Source of the DNA: a virus
Taxonomy: Monodnaviria > Loebvirae > Hofneiviricota > Faserviricetes > Tubulavirales > Inoviridae
DNA: 12,715 nt
Virus record (IMG/VR): IMGVR_UViG_2565956711_000001
Direction: 5' to 3' (one strand)
The stretch's first letter is position 1, and each line of letters starts with the position of its first letter. This document shows positions 1 to 12,715 of this stretch, piece by piece. Below the pieces are notes generated by a model that was not told the DNA's origin, made no database searches, and saw nothing but the letters and a program-made list of their open reading frames with translations. The position numbers were made by a program, and so were the translations under genes.

Positions 1-297
1 TCACCATTCCTCACGCCTTGCCGGTGAATCAAACTCCTTTTCTACAAAATTTGCAGGGTTTGTATAAGTTGAAAGCGGTGCAGAACTGAGCGAAATCTCC
101 ACCCCTAAAATATTTAACACTTTGTATAGACGCTCAAAACTTGCTTTTGAAGGATTTGACTCAAGGCGAGCATAAGTCTGCTGGGTTATACCCAACATGG
201 CAGATAATTCTCTTTGAGTTAATCCTTTTGATTTACGAAAACCAATTAGAAGTGGACGTAACTGGCTAAGAAGTCTAACGGGAAAAATAGTATCCAT
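1..297 (-). CDS. XRE-family HTH DNA-binding protein, HipB-like antitoxin/regulator (98 aa); any cognate toxin gene would lie beyond the left window edge
   Basis: Complete ORF with ATG at 295-297 and TGA at 1-3. The translation has a Cro/CI-type helix-turn-helix (GLTQRELSAMLGITQQTYARLESNP) and ends in ...EEW, like the C-terminal Trp of E. coli HipB (recalled from memory). No clear Shine-Dalgarno sequence. Confidence 0.55.
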   Translation of the reverse strand: MDTIFPVRLLSQLRPLLIGFRKSKGLTQRELSAMLGITQQTYARLESNPSKASFERLYKVLNILGVEISLSSAPLSTYTNPANFVEKEFDSPARREEW

Positions 298-413
298 AAG
301 TAGGTGGCCATGTCGATTACTTCATAATAAATTCACTCCTCGTAAGAAACAGCCTGTAAGGTGTCTTATTACTTTACAGCTTACAAGGTGTAAGGGTGAA
401 CTCGTTGTATTAA

Positions 414-608
414 CTAATACTGCTCAAATTTTAAAGGTTGCATCTCGCGCTGGCTGGGATTATATTTATTAAGGACTAGCATATAGTGGTGTACGCTGTT
501 ATCCTCTTTGTAATGAGGCTTATCAGTGTGTGAAGGGAGAGGGCGGACTCTGCTTTGCCCTCTCTCTTTCATGGACTTATTTAACTTTAAATGTTTTTTA
601 AAAGTCAT
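414..608 (-). CDS. Small basic hypothetical protein (64 aa), possibly translationally coupled to the upstream gene
   Basis: Its ATG (606-608) overlaps the TGA (605-607) of the 186-aa ORF in an ATGA arrangement. AT-rich; no recognisable motif; could be spurious. Confidence 0.3.
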   Translation of the reverse strand: MTFKKHLKLNKSMKERGQSRVRPLPSHTDKPHYKEDNSVHHYMLVLNKYNPSQREMQPLKFEQY

Positions 609-1165
609 TGCCTTATTGCAATGGTTTTATTAAAAATCCCAATCAATGTGTTTATTTTTTCATTTATCTTAATTTGCTTTTTCTCTTGCTCGAGAGAAAG
701 TTTTCTGAATTCATTTTCCCTGCTCGGCACGGCAATTATCAACTCTTCATAAATCTCCTTTGCTCCTGATACTTTTTCCAACTCGCTGCTGTATTTTTCG
801 ATAAGAGTTCTTATTTGAATATTTACATTTCTGTATTCATGACTGGTAGCACTTAAAACAAGTTGACTGGAATTTTTTTTGGGTGCCTCAATTAACTCTA
901 CGCTTTTCTTTACGACATTGAATTCAGATGTGACTGAGTATACATATTGATACGCGCCTGATTTTCTGACTTTACTCAATAATCCTTTTCTAACTAAACA
1001 CTGAATTTGGTTATAAGCAAAAGCTTTTGCCTTAAAATAACTTTTCGGAAGTGAAAATCGCTCGATAAGAATTTGAGCCACATCGTTACTGGTGAAGTTA
1101 TCTTTAGCAATATAGATTATTGCGGAAAATATGTACGACTCAGCGTTGGATACTCGACTATTCAT
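605..1165 (-). CDS. Hypothetical protein (186 aa), possible winged-helix N-terminal region plus lysine/glutamate-rich C-terminal coiled coil
   Basis: Uninterrupted 186-codon ORF with ATG at 1163-1165, in a markedly AT-rich stretch compared with its flanks. The C-terminus (EKKQIKINEKINTLIGIF) looks coiled-coil. No clear Shine-Dalgarno sequence. Confidence 0.5.
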   Translation of the reverse strand: MNSRVSNAESYIFSAIIYIAKDNFTSNDVAQILIERFSLPKSYFKAKAFAYNQIQCLVRKGLLSKVRKSGAYQYVYSVTSEFNVVKKSVELIEAPKKNSSQLVLSATSHEYRNVNIQIRTLIEKYSSELEKVSGAKEIYEELIIAVPSRENEFRKLSLEQEKKQIKINEKINTLIGIFNKTIAIRQ

Positions 1166-1186
1166 ATGACTAAAACAAGGCAGTTA

Positions 1187-1236
1187 ACTTAGGATTGCTA
1201 AGTATACAACAATGGCAGATACTTAGACAATCTAAG
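1187..1236. promoter_or_regulatory. Divergent promoter region with two palindromic candidate operators (ACTTAG-N5-CTAAGT at 1187..1203; CTTAGA-N3-TCTAAG at 1222..1236)
   Basis: Both inverted repeats were read directly from the sequence. They lie between the divergent starts at 1165 (minus) and 1263 (plus). Confidence 0.4.
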
Positions 1237-1262
1237 CATTCGAGGCCAATGAAGATGAATCA

Positions 1263-1595
1263 GTGTCTGAAAAAAATCCGATACCAGAAAGACTTAAGGA
1301 AGCGAGAAGCAGGGCGGGTTTATCACAGCGCTCATTGGGCCTCCTTGTTGGGTTTGATCCCGCTTCGGCTAGCAGTCGTATGAATCATTATGAGAAAGGG
1401 CGCCATGTCCCCGATATTGATACGCTTCGACGGATGGCGGCAGAGTTAAACGTGCCGTTGAACTACTTTTTTTGTGATGATCAGACCACAGCTGAACTTG
1501 CATTACTCATATCCCGGATGACAGAGGAAGAGCGAAGTAATCTTATCGAAGCACTCAAAAGGCATCCAGGCGAAAAGCATGCTGACAAAAAATGA
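1263..1595 (+). CDS. XRE-family (Cro/CI-type) helix-turn-helix transcriptional regulator (110 aa)
   Basis: The translation contains LKEARSRAGLSQRSLGLLVGF...MAAELNVPLNYFF, a typical HTH_XRE fold signature. The only in-frame start is GTG at 1263, preceded by a weak purine-rich stretch; TGA at 1593-1595. GC content is higher than in the neighbouring AT-rich genes. Confidence 0.7.
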   Translation: MSEKNPIPERLKEARSRAGLSQRSLGLLVGFDPASASSRMNHYEKGRHVPDIDTLRRMAAELNVPLNYFFCDDQTTAELALLISRMTEEERSNLIEALKRHPGEKHADKK

Positions 1596-1799
1596 TATTA
1601 CATATAAAGCGACTGAACTTTTTGAAGGTAACGAAAGTGTAGCATTACACTGATGCAATGAACCAAGCAGGACATTACAGTGGGAGACGCCCTCTCAGAT
1701 AACAAACTCAAAAGAGGGAGCCATAAATATATGTTTATCAATACAACCAGCATTCTGCCGACAACCGGGAAGCTGTCGGCTAAATCTTCCATGTCAGAA

Positions 1800-2234
1800 T
1801 TATGACGACTTATGTAGTTCCCGAATCATATGGTTGGCCAACAGGCTTTCCACCGGTATAACCGAATTGATTTTTACCGCTTTGACAATTTCTATCAACG
1901 AAAGGGTATTTTGCGCTAATTGGTCTCGCAATTCACTTACTTCAGCCTGCAACTGCTGGTTTCTGGCCAGTAAAGCCTGACGGGTTTTGCGGTTGACGTA
2001 TTGCTGTTTTTCTTTTGGGCGTAGATTCAATGGGCCAAGTTGCTGGTCAACATAGGCAGCAATTAGGCGTTTACGCTCTAGGCTGCTCAGCGTACTTAAA
2101 CCACCGTTAACGATACCTTTTGCCTTGAGCCTAATATGCAGGGCCTTGGCGGAAATAGGGGACTTGTCAAAGCCTTCAACCAGCATCAGTTGTAATTCGT
2201 GCTCAATCAGTGTGTTCAGTTCCTTGCCGCGCAT
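1800..2234 (-). CDS. Small coiled-coil protein, fourth gene of the tri-recombinase operon (GinD-like or TnpC-like accessory protein)
   Basis: Its ATG at 2232-2234 overlaps the TGA (2234-2236) of the upstream 788-aa recombinase in an ATGA arrangement. The ORF track starts one codon earlier at TTG 2237. Coiled-coil segment NQQLQAEVSELRDQLAQN. No catalytic motif recognised. Confidence 0.6.
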   Translation of the reverse strand: MRGKELNTLIEHELQLMLVEGFDKSPISAKALHIRLKAKGIVNGGLSTLSSLERKRLIAAYVDQQLGPLNLRPKEKQQYVNRKTRQALLARNQQLQAEVSELRDQLAQNTLSLIEIVKAVKINSVIPVESLLANHMIRELHKSS

Positions 2235-4600
2235 CAATCATTCTCCTGCATCAATTGTTGGTATTCAAGTGCAAAAAGCTGGGCCAGTGTACGGACTTTG
2301 CCCTCGGTGATTACTCCACCAGACAACACACTCTCAGCAGCAACCAGTTGTTGAGTCTTGGCACGACGATGCCATTGTGCTTGTATTGCCTCGAGTTGCT
2401 GTAACCGTCGTTCGATGTCGGCCAGTCTGGTCTGGTAATCAGGCTGATGTTGAGTAAGTTGGGTCAACTTCGAATGTGCTTGCTGTAAAGCCTGTTTTTT
2501 GGCAATCAGATTTGGTAGCTCATCTATCCGGCCTGTCAGCGTGAAATGTTCACAAAAGGCAGCACTCTGGCATTTCAGTCGATAAGGACATCCCCAGAGG
2601 TTAACTTCCCGCATACAGGAGCCAAATTTCAGCGGATACAGCACGGCATGTCTTGCCACCATGTCAGAGGCTTGCTCTGGTCCTTCTGCGTCGCGGATTT
2701 CTTCAAAGGCGGCAGCAACATCTTCAAAGAGGCCGTTAGCAAATGACGCCTCGACAAACCTGGCTACATCATCCCGATCGTCAAAAGTATGCAGGTTGGC
2801 TTTGATGGTATTGTCCAAAGTCATGTGTTCCGTGACCGCCAGTTGGCCGGTCCGTTTGACGATATCCAGTGGCGTAGCAATGGAGGACGAAGAGGGCGAG
2901 ACAGTTAGTGCTGTCGAAATCGGCTGCAAGGGCACCAACGAGGCGGCTTTTCGCCGTTCTGCAAGCGCCAGATGTTGATAATGCTGATTCTGCGTGATGT
3001 CCACTCGACCCATCAACATTGCCTGTAAGTGGTCAGAGATATCCGCAATAGCAAGAAAGGTATTGATGTTGTGCCGGGGAATGTGGGTACGCATCCGCGT
3101 CGAGGTGCCATCCTCCTCCAGTAATTGATATTTGCTGAATACTGATCCATCAGGCTCAACGTTGCCTAAGAATTTATTCATAAGTGTGTTAGTGAAGGGT
3201 ATCGGTGTAGCCAGCAAAGCCAGTGTGCGCTTTAATGCCAGCGAACCCTTCTCGTGTAGAAATAGCAGATCCTCGTAGTTAACTTGGTAGCGTTTGCCAT
3301 TTTCCATCCAGGCGTGTGTACAGGGTTCGTTGGCATTCGCCAGACCAAATTCGGTCTTAATGTAATGATTGAGAGCAGTCTTGGAATAATAGATAGATTT
3401 GCTGTTTTTCGGGCCTGGTATTTCTTGAACGGGCAGCACACCTCTTTTGCTAAGGGCTTTGGATGTTTTGTCCCGTTGTCCTGCCCGGCCCCGAAAACTT
3501 GAGGTAGTTTGGGTGATGTACTTCACCACATCGTCCAGTTCGACTCGTTCACCGGGCATGTTGCTGATGGCCTGTGGCAGGTAATCAGCAAAAGATTTTG
3601 CCCGTAGATAGGTAAGATGGCTGCGTATTGGTGCGGTCAACATTTTAACGGTACTGAATATACTCTCGACCAGCGGTACTGCCAGCGGTTCTACCCAATG
3701 CGTTCGCTCCCCAGCACCTTTGACACCAACATAACGGATACCAAGAAAATAATCGGGTAATCCCTTGTCCTGAAATCGTTTGCAGATTGCCGGATCATCA
3801 ATCTGGCGTTTAAACAGGGCATCCTGTCTGAGATTAAACGCTTCAATGGAGCGAAAGCCGGTAATAACCAATAACAACAGGCAATTTAACGCGATTTTCT
3901 CAGCATCACTTTCCACCCGCTGGATTAATGCAACTATGTTCAGAAATCCGCGAATGGTAATCAACGCATCTTCACCATCGGTAGTGGTATCAGACAGCTT
4001 GGCCTGCTGTTTCAGCGCCATGGTTTCCCGGGCTTTGCGGGTCAAGTTGGTTTTGTTGGTATACTTCACATCAGAGTTGTATTGCAGTTTAACCAACGTA
4101 AATGTGAAGTGATTGACCAATTTTTGAAGGCTAACGCACCGCCCTTTATAGTTAGCTGTATTGGGGTCACTAGGAGATGAAACGCTACTGAGAAGATCCA
4201 TCGCTCGTTGAATGACAACTGTGCTCAGGTAAGATGGATGGGTCTGTCCTGTCTCATAAAGCATCGCATGGTACCATCGTTTCAGAATCATCAAAGTTGC
4301 CTTTGCCACCGCTGGCGACATACTCCTATTTCCCTGTCGGTAAACCACTACCAGCATAGCTTTCATGAACTGACTATATTCTTTGTCGATGGGCAGATGT
4401 TCTACAATACCTTTGAATCTGTTCATCTCATCAAAACGTAATGTATTTCTGCCGTTCCCTCGCAACCATCCACTTCCCTGGTTACCACTTACCCAGATAT
4501 GATCATTCCATGTTTGGGCAAAATCAGCAGACAGGTGCTGTTCGAACCATTTTTTTTGCTCTTCAATAAAAGCCTGAAAATGCTCAAAGTGATTTTTCAT
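2234..4600 (-). CDS. Tyrosine site-specific recombinase, large (788 aa), third of three tandem recombinases (GinC-like), with a C-terminal Cys4 and coiled-coil extension
   Basis: Box I-like arginine in VITGFRSIE. Box II-like HIPRHNINTFLA ... LMGRVDITQNQHY gives the R-H-R-Y catalytic pattern. C-terminal cluster CMREVNLWGCPYRLKCQSAAFC followed by a Q/L-rich coiled coil. ATG at 4598-4600 is preceded by AGGTGA; the start overlaps the upstream gene by 17 nt. Confidence 0.8.
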   Translation of the reverse strand: MKNHFEHFQAFIEEQKKWFEQHLSADFAQTWNDHIWVSGNQGSGWLRGNGRNTLRFDEMNRFKGIVEHLPIDKEYSQFMKAMLVVVYRQGNRSMSPAVAKATLMILKRWYHAMLYETGQTHPSYLSTVVIQRAMDLLSSVSSPSDPNTANYKGRCVSLQKLVNHFTFTLVKLQYNSDVKYTNKTNLTRKARETMALKQQAKLSDTTTDGEDALITIRGFLNIVALIQRVESDAEKIALNCLLLLVITGFRSIEAFNLRQDALFKRQIDDPAICKRFQDKGLPDYFLGIRYVGVKGAGERTHWVEPLAVPLVESIFSTVKMLTAPIRSHLTYLRAKSFADYLPQAISNMPGERVELDDVVKYITQTTSSFRGRAGQRDKTSKALSKRGVLPVQEIPGPKNSKSIYYSKTALNHYIKTEFGLANANEPCTHAWMENGKRYQVNYEDLLFLHEKGSLALKRTLALLATPIPFTNTLMNKFLGNVEPDGSVFSKYQLLEEDGTSTRMRTHIPRHNINTFLAIADISDHLQAMLMGRVDITQNQHYQHLALAERRKAASLVPLQPISTALTVSPSSSSIATPLDIVKRTGQLAVTEHMTLDNTIKANLHTFDDRDDVARFVEASFANGLFEDVAAAFEEIRDAEGPEQASDMVARHAVLYPLKFGSCMREVNLWGCPYRLKCQSAAFCEHFTLTGRIDELPNLIAKKQALQQAHSKLTQLTQHQPDYQTRLADIERRLQQLEAIQAQWHRRAKTQQLVAAESVLSGGVITEGKVRTLAQLFALEYQQLMQEND

Positions 4601-6149
4601 TGGACTTCACCTGTTCCTGATGAAAACGGCAGCGGGCGATAACAGACTCAATTTCAAACTGTGTGGTTTCATGGATTAAAATGAGCGGATTTCGGGAATT
4701 ACCTACACCGTCTGAAATAGCGATTAGTTCATCGACTTCTTTTTTGACGCATTCAAGTAGAGCCTGATGTTCACCATCCGTAAAAGGGCGATAATACAGA
4801 CAGCCGTAACAAGAACGCACTTCGCTGAAAGGGCATGTACTACTGTTCCTGGAGCAACCACCAATTTTATCATGCAACTCGTCACCAACGAGTCCCACCA
4901 CTGGATGGCCTTTCCAATGTGCTGAGTCGACCAGTTCCCCAGTGAGCATCATAGCCACCATATTTTGCCAAACGGGATTCGACCCAAGCGCTTTAGCACG
5001 GATCAAGGCCAACGCGGGAGTTGCCATAATGTAGTATTTAGCTACGGCAAGAGAGGTGTGCCCCAGTACATGTGCTATCTCTTCAGCGCTAGCACCTTGC
5101 ATCGCCAAAGAGTGCCCAACATTGTGGCGTAAATCAGTGGGTGTAATTGTGGGCAATGCAGCTTCGCCACATGCTACGGCGGCTTGATATTCAGGAGGAC
5201 AGAAATTTAGGATTGCCTGATTAATTGCCTGAGACACATAATGCGGAGCTGAAACGCTGAAATCGAATAGTTTATCTTCGGGGTTTTTCTTATATCTCAC
5301 GGTATAGTTCATAATTAACTCCCCAATTTCTGGGGGGATCGCCAGAAATAACCGCTCTGTCGTCACTCGTCTTTGTTTAGCATATGGTAAAAAAACACTG
5401 TATCGAATCAGACCAGATTCCTGATTTCGTGTATCGATACGAACATCTTTGACCGCCAGCCTAGCGAGTTGTACTGGGCGTGCACCCGTTACATAAGCCA
5501 ACCCAAGGATAGCTGCATTGCGCACTTCGCTGTGACTGAAACTTTTGCCATCGCGTAACAACGAAGCCATTTCAAACAGTCCATTGCAAATCATGTTTTT
5601 TTCAAGAGGGTCAAGAATATTATCGATTTCTTGGTAACCCCCCCAATGTTCGAGATACGGTCGAGGGACGAACTCAAGATCATCGTAATCTTCAAGATTG
5701 AAACCTGGGAATGTTTCAGCACAAAGTATTTTTAATCCGAATAACACGGAATAAAAAGTAGCATTATCAATATCCTCTTTTTCGATAAATAATCGGAGCG
5801 TACTAAGCGAAAACCCACCATGTTCTCGACAATATGAAATGATATTCCTCCAATCAAGGTGCAACGCTGGAAGTTTGGTTGGAAATCTCGTCGATGCATA
5901 TTTGAAACAGATATACTTGTTTAATTTATTTGAGATATAATCTTGATTGAAAACAAGATATCGCCGACTGCCTGAATAATCGAAAGTCCATTTATTTCCT
6001 TTGTTAACAATATATTTATCATCAAACTCCATTGCCGTTTTTAGATAAATTCGATCAGGAATATCGAGTTCAAAGATAGCCTTAGCTAAATCAGGAGGGT
6101 AAACTGAGTTCCCTTCGTCAGATTTTAATGCATTATCAAATGATGTCAT
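4584..6149 (-). CDS. Tyrosine site-specific recombinase (521 aa), second of three tandem recombinases (GinB-like)
   Basis: Box I LGLAYVTGARPVQLARL. Box II TDLRHNVGHSLAMQGASAEEIAHVLGHTSLAVAKYY matches the H-x-x-R ... LGH ... Y pattern. C-terminal Cys cluster CSRNSSTCPFSEVRSCYGC. ATG at 6147-6149 overlaps the upstream gene by 14 nt. Confidence 0.8.
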   Translation of the reverse strand: MTSFDNALKSDEGNSVYPPDLAKAIFELDIPDRIYLKTAMEFDDKYIVNKGNKWTFDYSGSRRYLVFNQDYISNKLNKYICFKYASTRFPTKLPALHLDWRNIISYCREHGGFSLSTLRLFIEKEDIDNATFYSVLFGLKILCAETFPGFNLEDYDDLEFVPRPYLEHWGGYQEIDNILDPLEKNMICNGLFEMASLLRDGKSFSHSEVRNAAILGLAYVTGARPVQLARLAVKDVRIDTRNQESGLIRYSVFLPYAKQRRVTTERLFLAIPPEIGELIMNYTVRYKKNPEDKLFDFSVSAPHYVSQAINQAILNFCPPEYQAAVACGEAALPTITPTDLRHNVGHSLAMQGASAEEIAHVLGHTSLAVAKYYIMATPALALIRAKALGSNPVWQNMVAMMLTGELVDSAHWKGHPVVGLVGDELHDKIGGCSRNSSTCPFSEVRSCYGCLYYRPFTDGEHQALLECVKKEVDELIAISDGVGNSRNPLILIHETTQFEIESVIARCRFHQEQVKSNEKSL

Positions 6150-7530
6150 CGTTATATCTATCCATTATAGTATCTAACGTATTATGTAGCGCTGCATTGT
6201 CTTGAATAATTCGTTGGACATTGGCAGCATTAGCCTGCTCAGACAGGAAACGTTTTGCATATAGATCAGGCATTTGACTTGTCGGACTCCATCCCCCCAT
6301 CAGTCGTAGTTCATCTTTAGCTTCTTCCATTATCCCTGAGAGGGAAGGGACTTCAGCAATAAAGTGTGTTTTATTTTGCTGGCTTTTCAAATATTTTAAA
6401 TGCCATATTTTTTGCAATGTCAAAAAGGCCCAAGTATGTCGGGTTGTATGCGGAGTCAATCGTTGCAACGAGTCAGAGTACAACGGTGATTTGTACTCTG
6501 GATATTGGTTAGTGAAGACCTGATCTATTTTCGAAAAAATAGAATGAACTGATGTGTAGGACAAAGGCTTCGCTGACTGTTGACTCGATGTAAAGATGAA
6601 ATCGTGTTTATCAGTTTTTGGTCGAAGCTTTGCTATATAAATGCTTAAAAAAATATAATCCTGCTTATCGAGCTCCAACACACGATTAGCCCATGCATTT
6701 TTGAGAGATGGCGCATTCTTTCTTGGTTCGTATGCCTCGTCGACAGTTGTCACAATCAAACTAAACTTATCACCTTTTAAATTAGGTTTAATTGAGCTGC
6801 ACTCTAACAACAATAGCTCACCTGTTCGTAAACCATAATTTAACAACAGACGAATAATCAAAAAATTGCGGAACTGAAGATGCCCGGAAGGGAAAGGATT
6901 TAGCGGGTTATGCTTTTGGGCAGAAGAGGGGGTTATTATTCCATACAGGCTGAGCACCATTGCCCCAGACAAACTCTGAAATCCTTGGCTGCTGTGACTA
7001 TGTTGCGAAAATTTGTTTGATGTAAGCGTTCGATAATTCTCCCGGCAAAGCTGTAAACGGGTGTGTAAACGCGAAGCCAAAAGTGATAATGCTTTGGGAG
7101 AGTCATCCCGGTATGCAGGTGATATGTAGGTGTTAATCAAAAAAGAAATGAAATGGATCACAGCACGAACTCTAACTGTATGAGTTAAGCTATTGGCTTT
7201 TGTGACTCTCGTTAAAGACAACACATTTGACTGGACGTTGTGGCCATTTTCTAGATACATCCAAAATGCGGGCATTTCACCGACAGCAATGTCTGGATTG
7301 TGGTCAGATGAATAGAAGCTGTAGCAAAACGAGACACCATACTTTTGCCTCCAGAATTCGTAAAAAAACTTCACAGATTGAAGTGAAGCTGACTGTGTGG
7401 ACAATGAGCGGAAAGCCAAATGGTCAATATGGTACCTAAGGGGATACAGCAACGGCAGAGAGGTTTCCAAGTCCATCAGGATCCATCGCCTTTTACGGCC
7501 TGAGATAACCAACTGCTTTAGTGAATACAC
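6136..7530 (-). CDS. Tyrosine site-specific recombinase (464 aa), first of three tandem recombinases (GinA-like)
   Basis: C-terminal LTPHTTRHTWAFL ... LMGGWSPTSQMPDLYAKRF matches the H-x-x-R ... Y catalytic motifs of the integrase family. GTG start at 7528-7530 is preceded by GAGGT about 7 nt upstream. First gene of the operon, reading away from dif. Confidence 0.8.
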   Translation of the reverse strand: MYSLKQLVISGRKRRWILMDLETSLPLLYPLRYHIDHLAFRSLSTQSASLQSVKFFYEFWRQKYGVSFCYSFYSSDHNPDIAVGEMPAFWMYLENGHNVQSNVLSLTRVTKANSLTHTVRVRAVIHFISFLINTYISPAYRDDSPKALSLLASRLHTRLQLCRENYRTLTSNKFSQHSHSSQGFQSLSGAMVLSLYGIITPSSAQKHNPLNPFPSGHLQFRNFLIIRLLLNYGLRTGELLLLECSSIKPNLKGDKFSLIVTTVDEAYEPRKNAPSLKNAWANRVLELDKQDYIFLSIYIAKLRPKTDKHDFIFTSSQQSAKPLSYTSVHSIFSKIDQVFTNQYPEYKSPLYSDSLQRLTPHTTRHTWAFLTLQKIWHLKYLKSQQNKTHFIAEVPSLSGIMEEAKDELRLMGGWSPTSQMPDLYAKRFLSEQANAANVQRIIQDNAALHNTLDTIMDRYNDDII

Positions 7531-7673
7531 AATATTTACCTCAAAATTATCATGGATATGAAGAGAATGTACTCTGTACCTAATGCAAGAAACGAGAGGG
7601 AGATCAGAAATCCTAACGTATTGATTTATCAGTTAGTGGGAGTGTCATATGAACTTATTTACCACAGTAGGTG

Positions 7674-7701
7674 ATTTAACATAATATACATTATGCGCAC
7701 C
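7674..7701 (-). other. dif: dif chromosome dimer resolution site (XerC/XerD target), exact 28-bp match to the E. coli dif sequence as recalled
   Basis: The plus strand reads ATTTAACATAATATACATTATGCGCACC, the reverse complement of GGTGCGCATAA-TGTATA-TTATGTTAAAT (XerC arm, central region, XerD arm). Confidence 0.85.
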
Positions 7702-7986
7702 AGTGCGCAGATACGCCAGAAATCAGCCTGTAACCATCACCACGGCATTAAACGGTCATCGCTGTTACGTTCTTTCGTCTTCGACCGTCAGCCATCCGTA
7801 TCGCTTCTGAATACGCCGGAATGAAAAACAGGCTTTGCAGTGCCGGGAATTATTATGGCTGACGCCATAATGCTGTTTATGTCCTCGCTTCGCTGCGGGG
7901 CTTCCGGCGCTAAGCGCCTCCCATGCCTGACGGCATAAAAACCGGATATGCCGCCACGTCACCGCATGATACGTCCGTCGCCACCA

Positions 7987-9249
7987 TCACCGCGCGCGCT
8001 CCTCGTGGGAACTCGGTGCGTGCGCGGCGCTGGCGCGCCTGACTTTTTTCGCCTGTAACACGACAAGAATATCCGTCTTGTTCTTCTCGTCAGATGAACT
8101 GGTGAGCCAGCCTTTTGGCAGAAAGCTGAACCCGGTATCGGCGTTTGTGACCTTCGATTCAGCCAGGCCACCCAGCAGAATAATATCCCCGTCAGCCGCT
8201 GATACCTCCGTATTCACCTCGCGCTTAATCAGCGTCGGGCTGTTATTCACGCCCGTATCCGTCTTCGCAAAGCTGGAAAGCTGCTGCTTAATCACAAGGT
8301 CAATATTGTCAGTCCGGATTTGCGGTTTCACGTCGAGGATAACGCCACTAGAGCGATATTCAATCGACTGGATCGGCCTGTTGTCGGCGTAGCTCACCTG
8401 ACCCAGCACCGGAACCTCGTTACCGACTGAAAACGTGGCAGATGCGCCATCCTTCACCCTGAGCCGCGGGGAACTGACGACATGAAAACGACTGTCCGTC
8501 CTGAAAAGCTCATACAGCGCATCAAGAGAGCCTGTATTCACCCGGATAAAGTTATCAAAACCGCCAGACGCGCCAATCTGTATATTCAGCTTGCCGGAAA
8601 GCAGCTTCGCCGCCAGTGCCAGCCCGGAACCGTTACGCTCACTGGTCTGAACCTCAAACACGTAAGCTGCGACAATCACTTCTTCAGAGGCAGTATCAAT
8701 CAGCGGTAAAAGCGTCTGCAACCGCTTAATCTCTGACTTCCGGCCATAATAAACCAGCACATCCCCGGTACGGTTCATAAAGTCCGATGCCGTACCCGCT
8801 ACGGCCGCTTCTGGCGATATCTGCCCGGACGGTAACGAGTTACGCTGACTGTTAAACTGCCCGGTAAACTGTCCGGCCAGAATGTCAGACAGATACGCCA
8901 CGGAACGGAAGCGAGGCCGATAAACAAAGGTCTCCTGCGGCGGCACATACACTTTCGGCGTGAACGGCGCCACGTAGTCAATGCCCTGTTTGTTATAAAT
9001 CGCAATGTTCATATTGCCGAGATAGCGCTTAATAAATGCCCGTTCATCGATATCCGGCGTGATACGGAACGTCACCACCTTATCGGATTTGGCAAGCTCC
9101 GGGTCAAGCATAAACGGCTTATCGAACACCTGAACGTAAATCATGTTCAGCGCCTGCGGCAGCGGAACAGCGTTGAGCTCCAGACTGACGCCCTTCGCCA
9201 TAACCAGCCCCGGAACCAGTAAAAAAAGTAAACCTGTTATCAGCTTCAT
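7987..9249 (-). CDS. Filamentous phage pIV-like outer-membrane secretin (420 aa)
   Basis: N-terminal signal peptide (MKLITGLLFLLVPGLVMA). C-terminal secretin-like segment (VVSSPRLRVKDGASATFSVGNEVPVLG ... GDIILLGGL). Its ATG overlaps the Zot/pI stop in an ATGA arrangement at 9246-9249, and it sits immediately downstream of the pI-like gene as in Ff phages. Confidence 0.8.
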   Translation of the reverse strand: MKLITGLLFLLVPGLVMAKGVSLELNAVPLPQALNMIYVQVFDKPFMLDPELAKSDKVVTFRITPDIDERAFIKRYLGNMNIAIYNKQGIDYVAPFTPKVYVPPQETFVYRPRFRSVAYLSDILAGQFTGQFNSQRNSLPSGQISPEAAVAGTASDFMNRTGDVLVYYGRKSEIKRLQTLLPLIDTASEEVIVAAYVFEVQTSERNGSGLALAAKLLSGKLNIQIGASGGFDNFIRVNTGSLDALYELFRTDSRFHVVSSPRLRVKDGASATFSVGNEVPVLGQVSYADNRPIQSIEYRSSGVILDVKPQIRTDNIDLVIKQQLSSFAKTDTGVNNSPTLIKREVNTEVSAADGDIILLGGLAESKVTNADTGFSFLPKGWLTSSSDEKNKTDILVVLQAKKVRRASAAHAPSSHEERAR

Positions 9250-10280
9250 CGTATCGCCCCTGAATAAACCGTCACCGTTTCGCCGTCGATTTCACCCGTC
9301 ATCATCATGCCGTCAAAGCTGAACTGCGAAGCCGGCTCTATACGCAATCTGCCTGACGTGTCTGCAACAACAACCCATGCCTGACCATCGCGTTTAAGCC
9401 GTCCGGCAAGTCGCCATTTGTCCGACACAACGGGCTTAGCTGGCGCGGCAGGTACAAAAGACGCTGAATTATTTGCGGCGGGTAAATCTTTAGTCTGCTG
9501 TTCAGGCTCTGAATTACCGTTTGACGTGAAAAACCAGAACAGATAAAAAATGGCAATTACCGCCAGAATCAGTAACCCGACAGCTTTAAACCACAACATT
9601 TTAGAACTGAAAATATTCTGACGTTTATCGGTGACAAGTTCCCTTCCCTGCCCGTTCTCATGGGATTTATATAGGGGGAATATCGCCTTGTCATATTTAT
9701 TCTGATAACTGTTCGTCAGATTCGACTTAAACAGTTTGATACCCGTAAATACGTCCACACGGTAGCGGTTATGCAGACCCAGCGCCACATGCTTACTCAT
9801 GCGATACGTTGTTTCCACCCGGTCTTTAATGAATCGCGGAAGGTTGGCAACAGACTGATTCATAACCACTAAATCACAGGTTACGCCCGTTTTTTCATCG
9901 GCAAAATGGCGATGTTCTGCAATGAAAGAGCGATGATTTGCAGGAATCCCTTTATCGTTCTCCCATATGCGCCATGCTTCATCAATACAGATTAAATCCC
10001 CCGGACGGCAGAACGTATCATCCGCAATGCCTGAATCCGTTTTGTAGGGAAAGAAATTATCGTTCTGAACGTCTTCATTCTGAACAAGTAAAATTTCACC
10101 AAGTGATTCCCTGTCTGCCTTTTTAATATCAACGCAGTAATCATAAATACTTTGCGTGGCAAGGCCGTAAATATTACTGACAATGCGACGCCCAGCGATA
10201 CAGGCGGGAATAATGACGCTTGCCACCACTTCGTAAGATTTACCGCTTCCGGGAATGCCCACATACGCAGAAATAGCCAT
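9246..10280 (-). CDS. Zot/pI-family filamentous phage assembly ATPase (344 aa)
   Basis: Walker A motif GIPGSGKS near the N-terminus, Walker B-like LICIDEAW, and a single predicted transmembrane helix (AVGLLILAVIAIFYLFWFF) separating the cytoplasmic and periplasmic parts. This is the architecture of Ff gene I and Zot. Confidence 0.85.
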   Translation of the reverse strand: MAISAYVGIPGSGKSYEVVASVIIPACIAGRRIVSNIYGLATQSIYDYCVDIKKADRESLGEILLVQNEDVQNDNFFPYKTDSGIADDTFCRPGDLICIDEAWRIWENDKGIPANHRSFIAEHRHFADEKTGVTCDLVVMNQSVANLPRFIKDRVETTYRMSKHVALGLHNRYRVDVFTGIKLFKSNLTNSYQNKYDKAIFPLYKSHENGQGRELVTDKRQNIFSSKMLWFKAVGLLILAVIAIFYLFWFFTSNGNSEPEQQTKDLPAANNSASFVPAAPAKPVVSDKWRLAGRLKRDGQAWVVVADTSGRLRIEPASQFSFDGMMMTGEIDGETVTVYSGAIR

Positions 10281-10283
10281 AAA

Positions 10284-10571
10284 TTAACCAATCAAAGGAA
10301 TGCGACGAATAATAAAGCGCGTTAACAATGCTGAAAACATCAGTTTAATCCCTTCCGTGACCATAAACAGATTCACGAAATACCATACGCTATCAGGTAG
10401 TGAGGAAAACAACCCGGCAATATCAACAGATTTTGGCAACAGTGACGCCAGAACCGGAACAAACGCCTGTACGACAAAGTACAGGCCAAAAAACAGAATA
10501 AATTTGACAACCACCGTTCGCAGCACAAAACCCAGCGCCACGTTAAAGGCTGAAACCAGAATACCAAACAT
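10284..10571 (-). CDS. Filamentous phage pVI-like minor coat / membrane protein (95 aa)
   Basis: Small, very hydrophobic protein placed between pIII-like and pI-like genes. Strong Shine-Dalgarno sequence GGAGG about 5 nt upstream of ATG at 10569-10571. Confidence 0.6.
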   Translation of the reverse strand: MFGILVSAFNVALGFVLRTVVVKFILFFGLYFVVQAFVPVLASLLPKSVDIAGLFSSLPDSVWYFVNLFMVTEGIKLMFSALLTRFIIRRIPLIG

Positions 10572-10581
10572 AACGCCTCCG

Positions 10582-12465
10582 TCACGCAGTCAGAATGATA
10601 CGCAGCGAAATAATGCCCCAGATAAGCAGGAATACCGCTTTCAGAAGTGGCCTGATTTTTTCCAGAAGCTCGCAGTGAGAATCAATGGAATATTTATTGT
10701 CCCAGAGTTCGAACGACCATACCGGACACTGAACATCCTTCGATGAAATACTCAGGTTTTTAATGTCCGGCATTAATTCTGTAATTGGCTTGAGAATTTC
10801 CTCACCTGTAGGCGGTTTTTCAAGTTCCGGCGATTTAATGCCGGGGTCTTCGCCTAAATCAACAGAAGTATCGGTATCTGTGCCTGTACCAGGGTGTACA
10901 CCTGTATCCGTTCCCGCACCGGGTCTGGCATTAACCCACGACTGAGGAACGACAACCGGACTATAAAGCAAGCCCTTATCAAGTTTTACGCCAACAGCAT
11001 TAGCCGCAGCCGTCAGTTCAGCCGCCGTAAAAGGTTTATCAAGCGGTATCCCCTGATATCCTTCCTGAACAACAGTCTGACCTGCAAGGCCATTAATAAG
11101 ATTAACCAGCGCAGCCGGGTTTAACTGTTCCTCCGGCTTGAAATCTATATTATCAATAACCTCGCCATTAATTACCTGAGGTAAATTTGATGTATCAAAT
11201 TCTGTATTAAAAAATATCTGGTCTTTAACATCCTGAACATCATTCGTCGTTTTATACACGGCCTTCTCAGGGTGGCAAATACTTTTCCACTGCGTTTTGG
11301 GATTATCAGCCGTACTGCCCGGCGCAGGTACTTTCTCGCTTTTACATAAATCCCATGAGTTTTCAAGCGTAACCGTTGTTGTTCCAACAGATAAAACCAC
11401 AGTTACAATCGATGAATATCCACCAAAATAAGGATTCGGCTTTTCATACTGAAAGTCTTTAACGGAAACCGAATAAACCTTAAAATTTCTTGGCATCCTG
11501 ATATGTAAGTTATTGTCGTCAGACGCCTCATGATAAGTCACATTGGAATGAGAATAACCATTAATCGACTTATAAAGCGCAATCATTACCGGATTATCAC
11601 TGACAAGTACAGCATCGCCCTTTGCATCCCTGATATCAGTCGAATAAGGATATTTAGTACCCTTAACTGACACACGATATACATCATTCGGTAATGGCTG
11701 GCTTATCGGCGGTGGTGCATCAATATTGTAATAGGTTGGCGCAATCTGAACAGGTTTAACCTGATGATTATAAGGGCTTATCGAGTCCTGAATATTCTTC
11801 GCAGAAAAGCCAGTAGCATCAGAGGGCAAATAAACAGCAACAGGGCTTTTAGGTGAAGGTGCAACAGAAGAAGTAACAGTAGCGCCATTGGACAAATTAA
11901 GTAAATAAGTTCCATCATCCTGTTTTATTCCACTTGTAATATATTCAACAGCTTTTGCGCCCTGCTTTAAAGCAAGGTCAGCAACGGAAATAACACCCGC
12001 AGCCTGCCCCAGCAATCCCCATGTTGTCTGTCCGGCAGCCATCATATTACTGCCAAAACTTGAAATACCCGTGGATATCGAATCGTCAATTGTATGCTTC
12101 GCAAGGCCATAAGCAGCCGCGAAAACTGACGTTCCGGTGCAAAGCTGAGGATTACCCACTTTCTCGCCACACATGCGGATTGAATCAAAAACGTCAGGAC
12201 GTTCGCGTATAACCTCCGCAGCGACAGCGATACCCGCGCCCATACCGAGAGAACTGGCACCCGTTGCGAATACACGCCCCGCAGATTGAGAAACAACCTG
12301 AGCTTCACGGGTTTCAACCATTTGCTGAATTACACGTCCAAATCCGTCTGCTGTTACTGCATCAGCATGTACACCGGATGAAACCAGTAAAGACAATATA
12401 GTAATACCTAACTTTCCAGACCCTGAATGACCGCCCAGGCGCATAAAAGCCCCCATAAAAAACAC
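10582..12465 (-). CDS. Filamentous phage pIII-like adsorption / minor coat protein (627 aa by ORF track; true start probably the ATG at 12442-12444)
   Basis: Signal peptide (MRLGGHSGSGKLGITILSLLVSSGVHA), a G/T/D/P-rich linker (PGAGTDTGVHPGTGTDTDTSVDLGEDPG) and a C-terminal hydrophobic anchor (LLKAVFLLIWGIISLRIILTA). Sits between pVIII and pVI. The ORF track start at 12465 is GTG; the ATG at 12442-12444 is preceded by a GGGGG purine run. Confidence 0.65.
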   Translation of the reverse strand: MFFMGAFMRLGGHSGSGKLGITILSLLVSSGVHADAVTADGFGRVIQQMVETREAQVVSQSAGRVFATGASSLGMGAGIAVAAEVIRERPDVFDSIRMCGEKVGNPQLCTGTSVFAAAYGLAKHTIDDSISTGISSFGSNMMAAGQTTWGLLGQAAGVISVADLALKQGAKAVEYITSGIKQDDGTYLLNLSNGATVTSSVAPSPKSPVAVYLPSDATGFSAKNIQDSISPYNHQVKPVQIAPTYYNIDAPPPISQPLPNDVYRVSVKGTKYPYSTDIRDAKGDAVLVSDNPVMIALYKSINGYSHSNVTYHEASDDNNLHIRMPRNFKVYSVSVKDFQYEKPNPYFGGYSSIVTVVLSVGTTTVTLENSWDLCKSEKVPAPGSTADNPKTQWKSICHPEKAVYKTTNDVQDVKDQIFFNTEFDTSNLPQVINGEVIDNIDFKPEEQLNPAALVNLINGLAGQTVVQEGYQGIPLDKPFTAAELTAAANAVGVKLDKGLLYSPVVVPQSWVNARPGAGTDTGVHPGTGTDTDTSVDLGEDPGIKSPELEKPPTGEEILKPITELMPDIKNLSISSKDVQCPVWSFELWDNKYSIDSHCELLEKIRPLLKAVFLLIWGIISLRIILTA

Positions 12466-12498
12466 ATAAAATCAAAAAGATATTGAGCCATAAATATA

Positions 12499-12518
12499 AA
12501 GGGGCTGTTACGCCCCTT
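12499..12518 (-). terminator. Rho-independent terminator hairpin downstream of the major coat gene
   Basis: Perfect 7-bp GC-rich stem (AAGGGGC / GCCCCTT) with a 6-nt loop, 12 nt after the pVIII stop, followed on the minus strand by a T-rich run (TTTATATTTAT). Ff phages have a terminator at this position after gene VIII. Confidence 0.5.
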
Positions 12519-12529
12519 ACCTTTATGAA

Positions 12530-12715
12530 TTAAGCGCCACGAACCATACGCAAAATCCAGCGGACACCCGCAGAACCTGCATACAGAACAATAAGAGAAC
12601 CCGCTACCGCCATAATTCCGGTCAGAACGGAACCGAAATTAACGCTGTTAGTCAGTGGCGTAAGGTCAATACCTTTACCACCAACAACATCACCTTCAGC
12701 AGCAAATACGGCAGG
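12530..12715 (-). CDS. Filamentous phage major coat protein pVIII (partial; N-terminus off-window)
   Basis: Hand translation of the minus strand gives ...PAVFA/AEGDVVGGKGIDLTPLTNSVNFGSVLTGIMAVAGSLIVLYAGSAGVRWILRMVRGA*. It has a signal-peptide cleavage context (FA-AEGD, like the Ff mature N-terminus), a hydrophobic core and a basic C-terminus. TAA at 12530-12532. Not in the ORF track because the start lies outside the window. Confidence 0.7.
   Translation of the reverse strand, partial: PAVFAAEGDVVGGKGIDLTPLTNSVNFGSVLTGIMAVAGSLIVLYAGSAGVRWILRMVRGA

Follow-up and report, generated by a model that had tools for sequence, protein, structure and literature searches.

A conserved stem-loop past the ginD stop codon of an enterobacterial GInt island as a possible 3'-UTR element of the ginABCD mRNA

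Stem-loops at the 3' ends of bacterial mRNAs stabilize the transcript or mark processed ends, as in the REP stabilizers and the trimmed ends of Rho-terminated transcripts. Among mobile islands, the closest described systems to the present locus are the GInts, in which a ginABCD operon sits at one island end and the cargo starts directly after ginD (PMC5385486). Blocks of ginC-ginD have been reported from 7.5% of the replicons of Escherichia and from 39.5% of those of Pectobacterium, and Aeromonas and Klebsiella are further genera that carry them (Idola et al. 2023, PMC10214605). Neither PMC5385486 nor PMC10214605 mentions a hairpin, terminator, or palindrome after ginD. Here, we describe such a hairpin in a stretch of 12,715 nucleotides, referred to below as the window.

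The four recombinase-operon genes of the window lie on the - strand, are co-oriented, and overlap head to tail. By gene order and description they are the ginABCD operon of an enterobacterial GInt island, the comparison being with the Pseudomonas prototype. The ginA-like (6136-7530, 464 aa; RefSeq start 7476) and ginB-like (4584-6149, 521 aa) tyrosine recombinases match Pfam Phage_integrase with E = 4.1e-7 and E = 1.1e-10, respectively, the latter also NCBIfam integrase_1, and they are the only operon proteins with the Pfam domain. The ginC-like gene (2234-4600, 788 aa) encodes no recognisable integrase domain, and a PDB sequence search with GinC gave no meaningful match. The small fourth gene, ginD (1800-2237, 144-145 aa; RefSeq start 2234), has no recognised domain. 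Homologues of GinD were found in Pectobacterium, Dickeya, Serratia, Klebsiella, Aeromonas, and Escherichia, which overlap the genera of published ginC-ginD blocks, and Acinetobacter and Psychrobacter loci were examined as well.

Convergent with ginD is an XRE-family HTH gene (1263-1595, + strand; Pfam HTH_19 and HTH_3). The initial annotation took this gene for a separate neighbor outside the recombinase unit; it is instead part of the cargo-proximal module of the island, which adjoins ginD in lineages down to ~69% DNA identity. The hairpin does lie, as first described, between the end of the XRE ORF (1595) and the last operon gene (stop codon 1800-1802, - strand), but this gap is not purely intergenic. 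Most of 1595-1800 is taken up by a pseudogene of the DUF2384/MbcA-ParS-Xre antitoxin family (1579-1745, + strand), which was recognized by alignment to the intact 64-aa gene of a Raoultella/Klebsiella plasmid (L002). The pseudogene, which overlaps the stop codon of the XRE gene, is interrupted by a premature TGA (1651-1653) and has lost ~140 nt relative to L002; the deletion also took a perfect 12-bp hairpin, AATTTCTCCAAC-TAAC-GGTTGGAGAAATT (L002 about 7360-7390). The corresponding gap of L002, with its intact convergent antitoxin-like gene, contains a pair of hairpins, one for each gene and ~19 nt from that gene's stop codon; the GC-rich one of the two is on the ginD side.

On the + strand, GCCGACA (1757-1763), ACCGGGAAGC (1764-1773), and TGTCGGC (1774-1780) make a perfect 7-bp stem with a 10-nt loop, and re-reading the window confirmed both the sequence and the position 1757-1780 given for it. 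On the - strand, which is the sense strand of the operon, G-U pairs lengthen the stem from 7 to 10 bp and shorten the loop to 4 nt. The core hairpin in the sense RNA is GCCGACAGCU-UCCC-GGUUGUCGGC (1757-1780), with 10 bp including two G-U pairs and a tetraloop. Beyond one mismatch, the core stem continues into a lower helix rich in A/U (AUUU / RAAU), giving an extended stem-loop at 1752-1785 on the same strand; in L002 and L011 the lower helix consists of five perfect pairs. For the 34-nt RNA of the - strand, the fold energy is -17.0 kcal/mol (z = -5.3), which none of 200 shuffles equaled, whereas the + strand fold, with its 7-bp stem and 10-nt loop, reaches -11.4 kcal/mol (z = -2.3).

We read this structure, tentatively and with a probability of about 0.45, as a stem-loop in the 3'-UTR of the ginABCD mRNA, where it would be an element of 3'-end formation or of transcript stability, or else a weak terminator. 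The competing view that the palindrome has no function starts from the numbers for the bare stem. Perfect stems of 7 bp or more with loops of 3-12 nt number 10 in the window and 6.7 +/- 2.7 in 200 dinucleotide shuffles; for those with at least 5 G/C in the arm, the numbers are two and 0.62 +/- 0.79. Judged by these counts, the 7-bp perfect stem alone is within chance for the window, as the view of a functionless palindrome would have it, while the local fold is significant. Elsewhere in the window, GCCGACA occurs only at 2416 and 8382, both within coding sequence.

The immediate surroundings of the hairpin contain several further features. Five nucleotides past the ginD stop codon is the motif CTGACAT (1791-1797, - strand; ATGTCAG on the + strand). 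In an alignment of 10 variants C.G.CAT is invariant, and the motif is similar to the hairpin arm CCGACAG. One relative (L059) has a further copy, CAGACAT, ~20 nt past the hairpin, and that copy is deleted in the window. CTGACAT/CAGACAT may be a repeated motif, or its recurrence may be due to chance. Past the hairpin, a conserved tail, AGAAUGCUGGUUGUA in the sense orientation (1742-1756, - strand), is the final piece of the conserved gin module. A small ORF that runs across the hairpin (1598-1792, - strand, 64 aa) was considered and set aside. Its start and frame are unconserved in relatives: the ATG is ATA in L011 and L002, and in Enterobacter chinensis (L010) an in-frame stop follows after three codons. 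The ORF has no Pfam match and no RefSeq annotation. A search of Rfam 15 with the hairpin returned only chance-level matches to eukaryotic snoRNAs and lncRNAs (E >= 0.6).

The comparison with homologous islands, which had been proposed with the initial annotation, bore out the hairpin as a conserved feature. It is kept in ~12 sequence variants from five enterobacterial genera, at 19-25 nt past the ginD stop codon (19 nt in the window). Its carriers are E. coli chromosomes and plasmids, Enterobacter chinensis, E. asburiae (L012), Escherichia whittamii (L011), Raoultella/Klebsiella plasmids (L002, L006, and L007), Serratia fonticola (L061), and a few metagenome contigs. In comparisons between lineages, identity is 75-95% over the 20 positions of the stem, against 57-85% at the third-codon positions of ginD; for the window and L012 the values are 18/20 and 67%. 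The 4-nt loop, in turn, has 0% identity to that of the window in L012 and L061. This combination of a conserved stem and a freely varying loop looks like that of a selected hairpin. A pattern scan of metagenomes gave 120 matches, nine of which are true ginD contexts, and these added two or three new single-base variants. One further candidate variant (L131) was dropped, as it is a decayed ginA'-'ginD remnant.

The two strands do not fold equally well. Nine variants were compared in this respect (L006 and L057 were left out), and in 9/9 the sense fold is the better one, at -12 to -20 kcal/mol against -6 to -17 kcal/mol for the antisense. Several imperfect pairs become G-U on the sense strand. 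In S. fonticola the two substitutions (C->U and A->G) keep pairing, as G-U, on the sense strand only. The RNAalifold consensus contains 14 pairs, namely the 10-bp stem and the A/U-rich lower helix, with 92% of the cells paired, and sliding the 3' partners by 1-3 columns lowers the paired cells to 24-56%. Covariation is weak: two pairs have changed on both sides, the covariation term of RNAalifold is ~0, and the covariation score was reached by 19 of 500 shuffles. Single pair-breaking substitutions were found in the recent lineages L060, L173, and L006.

These data bear in both directions on the idea of a functionless palindrome, which would have persisted through recent divergence and through arm-to-arm template switching or gene conversion, without selection. 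The loop centers, read on the sense strand, are TTCCCG in the window (within the loop at 1764-1773), GGGGAT in L012 (2959-2982), and AAGGAA in L061 (1956-1980), which suggests that the spacer has flipped between the inverted arms in L012 and L061. An inverted loop of this kind (the reverse complement of GGGGAT, ATCCCC, matches TTCCCG at 4/6 positions) would be a footprint of template switching. The tolerated pair-breaking substitutions fit as well, and so does an Enterobacter wuhouensis locus (L019) that lacks this hairpin although its GinD is 99% identical, so the hairpin appears dispensable for the module. The neutral account is difficult to reconcile with a stem that, in several lineages, is 15-25 points more conserved than the third-codon positions of ginD, with a strand asymmetry present in every variant folded, with the conservation of the flanking spacer and tail, and with the unrelated hairpins found at the same position in other lineages. 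We regard it as unlikely, though it deserves to be taken seriously.

The hairpin is linked to the gin module and not to the cargo. It is kept beside the gin module where the cargo is unrelated, consisting of exonuclease and hypothetical genes in L006 and L057, of MFS and DUF1349 genes in L007, and of retron Ec78 with IS remnants in L056. An operator of the XRE module was rejected for this reason, since the hairpin stays with the gin module under unrelated cargo and persists where the XRE module is absent. Similarity among elements with different cargo stops 13-20 nt past the hairpin (~1742-1749 in the window); therefore, the conserved part of the gin module ends with the hairpin and a short tail. 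In E. asburiae, a dif site with the GInt terminal motif is located only 1.5 kb upstream of ginD (L012 ~925-980), which implies that L012 is a deletion derivative that lost most of ginA-C and kept ginD and the hairpin.

The hairpin is present in a single copy. Every locus searched has one copy per element. Of 5426 E. coli genomes, 163 matched a 66-nt query, typically once (median of one place), and the five places inspected in E. coli are all directly downstream of ginD or its IS-disrupted remnant. A dispersed palindromic repeat (REP/BIME-like, or a MITE) was rejected on these grounds, that is, one place per genome and ginD at all places inspected.

The gin module does not always carry this hairpin. 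Divergence of L019 begins 9 nt past the ginD stop codon, and at the place of the hairpin there is another hairpin of 9-10 bp, GAAGGUCCG-N14-CGGACCUUC in RNA (GAAGGTCCG-N14-CGGACCTTC in DNA). In L008 and L009, the same place is occupied by yet another one, CACGUGG-N6-CCACGUG (CACGTGG-N6-CCACGTG in DNA). Lineages at 69-74% identity have all four gin genes and lack this hairpin, and no comparable structure was found after ginD in the 69% identity lineage or in the Pectobacterium, Acinetobacter, and Psychrobacter loci. A general enrichment of hairpins downstream of ginD was not found over 35 loci (mean fold z = -0.9), so the hairpin is lineage-specific.

The same distribution weighs on the possibility that a dimeric protein binds the double-stranded palindrome and thereby controls gin expression or recombination. 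Candidates are GinD, which is a predicted helix-loop-helix protein, a Gin recombinase for which the palindrome would be an accessory site, and a regulator of the host. The 7-bp arms, and above all CGAC/GTCG, are nearly invariant in sequence rather than covarying, and their spacing is constant at 10-11 bp while the spacer sequence varies. The palindrome can also be read as 9-6-9, like the core site of a tyrosine recombinase, and a third copy of C.GACA is 18 nt away, at 1791-1797. On the other hand, there is a single copy per element and none at either island end, the arms are unlike the terminal repeat TATGAACT and the dif-like junction, and the palindrome is missing from L019, where GinD is 99% identical, and from the 69-74% lineages with their four gin genes. 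The XRE module is excluded as a partner, for the palindrome persists without it, and G-U pairs on the sense strand are meaningless for duplex DNA. We consider protein binding doubtful. A more specific proposal makes the palindrome a cis-acting GInt DNA site with a 9-6-9 layout (GCCGACAGC-TTCCCG-GTTGTCGGC) for the exchange or capture of cargo, or for recombination control by the Gin proteins or GinD. If true, it would be an internal recombination or regulatory site undescribed for GInts, placed exactly at the junction of module and cargo, but we hold it to be very improbable.

The ends of the island are located elsewhere. In megablast searches, positions 1-7700 of the window are 99.9-100% identical to sequences in many E. 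coli chromosomes and plasmids, and similarity stops at ~7700. Carriers of the element include E. coli EC09 (NZ_CM169492.1) and plasmid pCP131-IncHI1 (NZ_CP053721.1). The ginA-side end (7645-7701) consists of a terminal repeat motif, cATATGAACTTATTTA, followed by dif, ATTTAACATAA-TATACA-TTATGCGCACC, at 7674-7701. In E. coli EC09, the island extends ~38 kb leftwards from dif, so that its far end is ~32 kb left of the window start, and the far junction (L055 11777) reads cactcagacatg-ATTTAAC followed across the breakpoint by TTAT..., so that of dif it retains only ATTTAAC(T)TA(T). The empty site of K-12 is an uninterrupted dif, cactcagacatg-ATTTAACATAA-TATACA-TTATGCGCACC. Because the EC09 far junction and the ginA-side dif can be set against this empty site, the comparison places the insertion of the island in the XerD arm of dif, with an intact dif regenerated at the ginA side. 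An imperfect 11-nt direct repeat, ATTTAAC(A/T)TA(A/T), flanks the island and is within the 10-17 nt by which GInts are recognized. At 13-20 nt inside each island end is a terminal inverted repeat, TATGAACT(a/t)A(a/t)T, which is likewise imperfect. Copies on plasmids, in lineages of 69-100% identity, abut dif-like sites with the same XerD arm and another 6-bp center and XerC arm (junctions compared: window 7645-7701, L055 11777, L193 808-847, L002 13377, L003 12169, L071 1730, and L072 312). No paper linking GInts to dif was found in the library searched.

The hairpin is therefore internal to the island, 5.9 kb from the dif-side end and with at least 1.7 kb of cargo on its other side (~32 kb in EC09). 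The "recombinase-binding or island-boundary feature" offered in the initial annotation is not supported, as the ends are at the dif 5.9 kb away and beyond the left edge of the window; the single copy, arms unlike TATGAACT and the dif-like junctions, and the lack of the hairpin in L019 count against the same option. An island boundary or att site of the tri-recombinase island would agree with the place where similarity between elements with different cargo stops, 13-15 nt past the hairpin (~1742-1749), at the end of the conserved module. However, the island ends map to dif (7674-7701) and the EC09 far junction, the K-12 empty site is an intact dif, and the breakpoints vary, falling before the hairpin in L019 and 13-20 nt after it in others. 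The hairpin does not lie at a boundary between element and host, and it has neither a partner copy nor any likeness to the terminal repeat. We give this option next to no credence. A perfect 14-nt direct repeat, GAGCCATAAATATA (1718-1731 and 12485-12498, 10.8 kb apart), was rejected as a pair of island ends, the true ends being mapped elsewhere. Its second copy is inside a filamentous prophage, in the tail of the terminator after the major-coat-protein gene, and the repeat is most likely due to chance, with a rough expectation of ~0.3 such repeats per 12.7 kb.

The same dif is occupied by other elements. The filamentous (inovirus-like) prophage, at 7702-12715, is joined directly to the XerC arm of dif, and GInt and prophage are thus two mobile elements at one dif. 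The prophage encodes a pIV secretin (7987-9249), Zot/pI (9246-10280), a small minor-coat-like protein (10284-10571), a pIII-like protein of 627 aa (10582-12465), and a major-coat-like ORF cut off by the window edge (12530-12715), with a canonical terminator after the coat gene (12499-12518, - strand) followed by UAUAUUUAU. In related genomes and plasmids, the same dif or dif-like site has an ISNCY/IS1202-family element (ISKpn21-like) within a few bp of its XerC arm, at L001 19702-21216, L002 about 13405, and L003 12195-14500. The L003 copy lies between two dif-like sites in inverted orientation. That IS elements of the IS1202 family target dif has already been published (PMC10132070).

The cargo of these islands varies in size and content. 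In EC09, the cargo of the same GInt (L001 1-12000 and L055 11777-33901) is ~32 kb long, defence-rich, and IS-rich. Its products are NACHT, AlbA-domain, and SEC-C proteins, among others, together with a nuclease (ATP-dependent) and a UvrD helicase whose annotation makes the pair Gabija-like. An encapsulin/Dyp peroxidase pair is encoded as well, and there is an additional rpoH. In L019 (2936-4840), the gin module is accompanied by only ~1.9 kb of cargo, and a second copy of the XerD arm, TTATGTTAAAT, at ~4828 probably marks the far end of a very small GInt.

A bidirectional intrinsic terminator, or a + strand terminator for the XRE-DUF2384 transcripts that would shield the gin operon from antisense transcription, is suggested by the location between convergent transcription units, by the + strand stem followed by UAAAUCUU with 4 U in 8 nt, and by A/U-rich flanks on both sides that resemble the A-tract/U-tract symmetry of bidirectional terminators. 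The sense strand has the GC-rich stem and the short loop of an intrinsic terminator, but there is no U-tract in the tail of either strand (AGAAUGCU on the sense strand and UAAAUCUU on the + strand). When both strands were scanned against the terminator consensus, nothing terminator-like turned up at this position, in keeping with the missing U-tract noted at the outset. The + strand, on which XRE-DUF2384 transcripts would be terminated, has the weaker fold with the 10-nt loop, the hairpin is kept where the cargo is not a convergent XRE-DUF2384 module, and the cargo operon of L002 has its own hairpin by its stop codon. Termination of this kind is improbable in our judgment.

These observations return us to a 3'-UTR stem-loop of the gin mRNA. 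An RNA-level, sense-strand, structural role is favored by where the hairpin lies, by its staying with the module, by a stem that is conserved around a freely varying loop, and by the better fold of the sense strand. The assignment to the sense strand follows from the consistently stronger sense fold and from the hairpin traveling with the gin module. Since other hairpins occur at the same place in L019 and L008/L009, the role may be structural rather than sequence-specific. We infer that the RNA is the active form and that its effect is on 3'-end formation or stability. The earlier suggestion of an RNA-stability element or weak terminator thus stands as the best reading, except for its bidirectional part, as the sense strand of the recombinase operon is favored.

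According to this model, transcription of the operon on the - strand would pass the ginD stop codon, and 19 nt later the RNA would fold into the 10-bp stem with the UCCC loop (-17 kcal/mol). Because the U-tract is missing, the hairpin is not expected to be an efficient intrinsic terminator. Instead, the stem would most likely define or protect the 3' end of the transcript by blocking 3'->5' exonucleases once read-through transcripts have been terminated at a more distal point, where, for instance, Rho could act on the untranslated RNA antisense to the cargo genes. In addition, or alternatively, the stem may pause RNA polymerase or terminate it weakly. Either way, the recombinase operon would be set apart from the convergent cargo module. 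The C>G bias downstream is modest, with a C/G of 1.25-1.5 at 1583-1700, and these values neither support nor exclude a Rho site. Several points speak against a 3'-UTR element. Without a U-tract, no known termination mechanism is directly predicted, and RT-PCR on the Pseudomonas prototype GInt suggested that transcription continues into the cargo (PMC5385486). The weak covariation, the pair-breaking substitutions, and the absence of the hairpin from the loci of other ginD homologues weigh on the same side.

As a lineage-specific 3' stem-loop, the hairpin helps to mark where the gin module ends and the variable cargo starts, and it is usable for island annotation and for the design of mini-GInt constructs. 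It is undescribed in the narrow sense, yet an ordinary kind of feature. Like 3'-terminal stabilizing stem-loops, it is GC-rich, is located directly past the last stop codon, has no U-tract, combines a conserved stem with a variable loop, and folds on the sense strand. Unlike REP sequences, it is single-copy and element-specific rather than dispersed, and the 3' end proposed here is deduced from sequence. With intrinsic terminators, including bidirectional ones, it shares a GC-rich stem, a short loop on the sense strand, and a location between convergent genes; it differs from them in having no U-tract on either strand, the prophage terminator at 12499-12518 being the canonical example in the window.

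At the level of the island, a multi-recombinase operon at one end of a cargo island is also found in the SE elements and the GMT islands (GmtY/Z/X). Neither fits the present locus. The gene order of SE (intA-tfp-intB-srap) is unfit, as in the present operon the integrase domain is found in the second protein and not in the third. SE elements, moreover, terminate in inverted repeats of 13-19 bp (PMC10214605), whereas the hairpin described here is internal. For GMT, there is only a weak NCBIfam match of ginB to GmtY, and the operon has four genes, not the GMT trio. The GInts described by Bardaji et al. 2017 (PMC5385486), on the other hand, share with our locus the order of an integrase, a second integrase, a degenerate recombinase-like protein, and a small protein, as well as the operon at the island end, imperfect repeats of ~11 nt, and site-specific insertion. 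Unlike the GInts reported in PMC5385486 and PMC10214605, for which such a target is not mentioned, this island targets the XerD arm of dif. The context is more notable than the hairpin, namely a GInt family targeting the XerD-binding arm of dif and of dif-like sites on plasmids.
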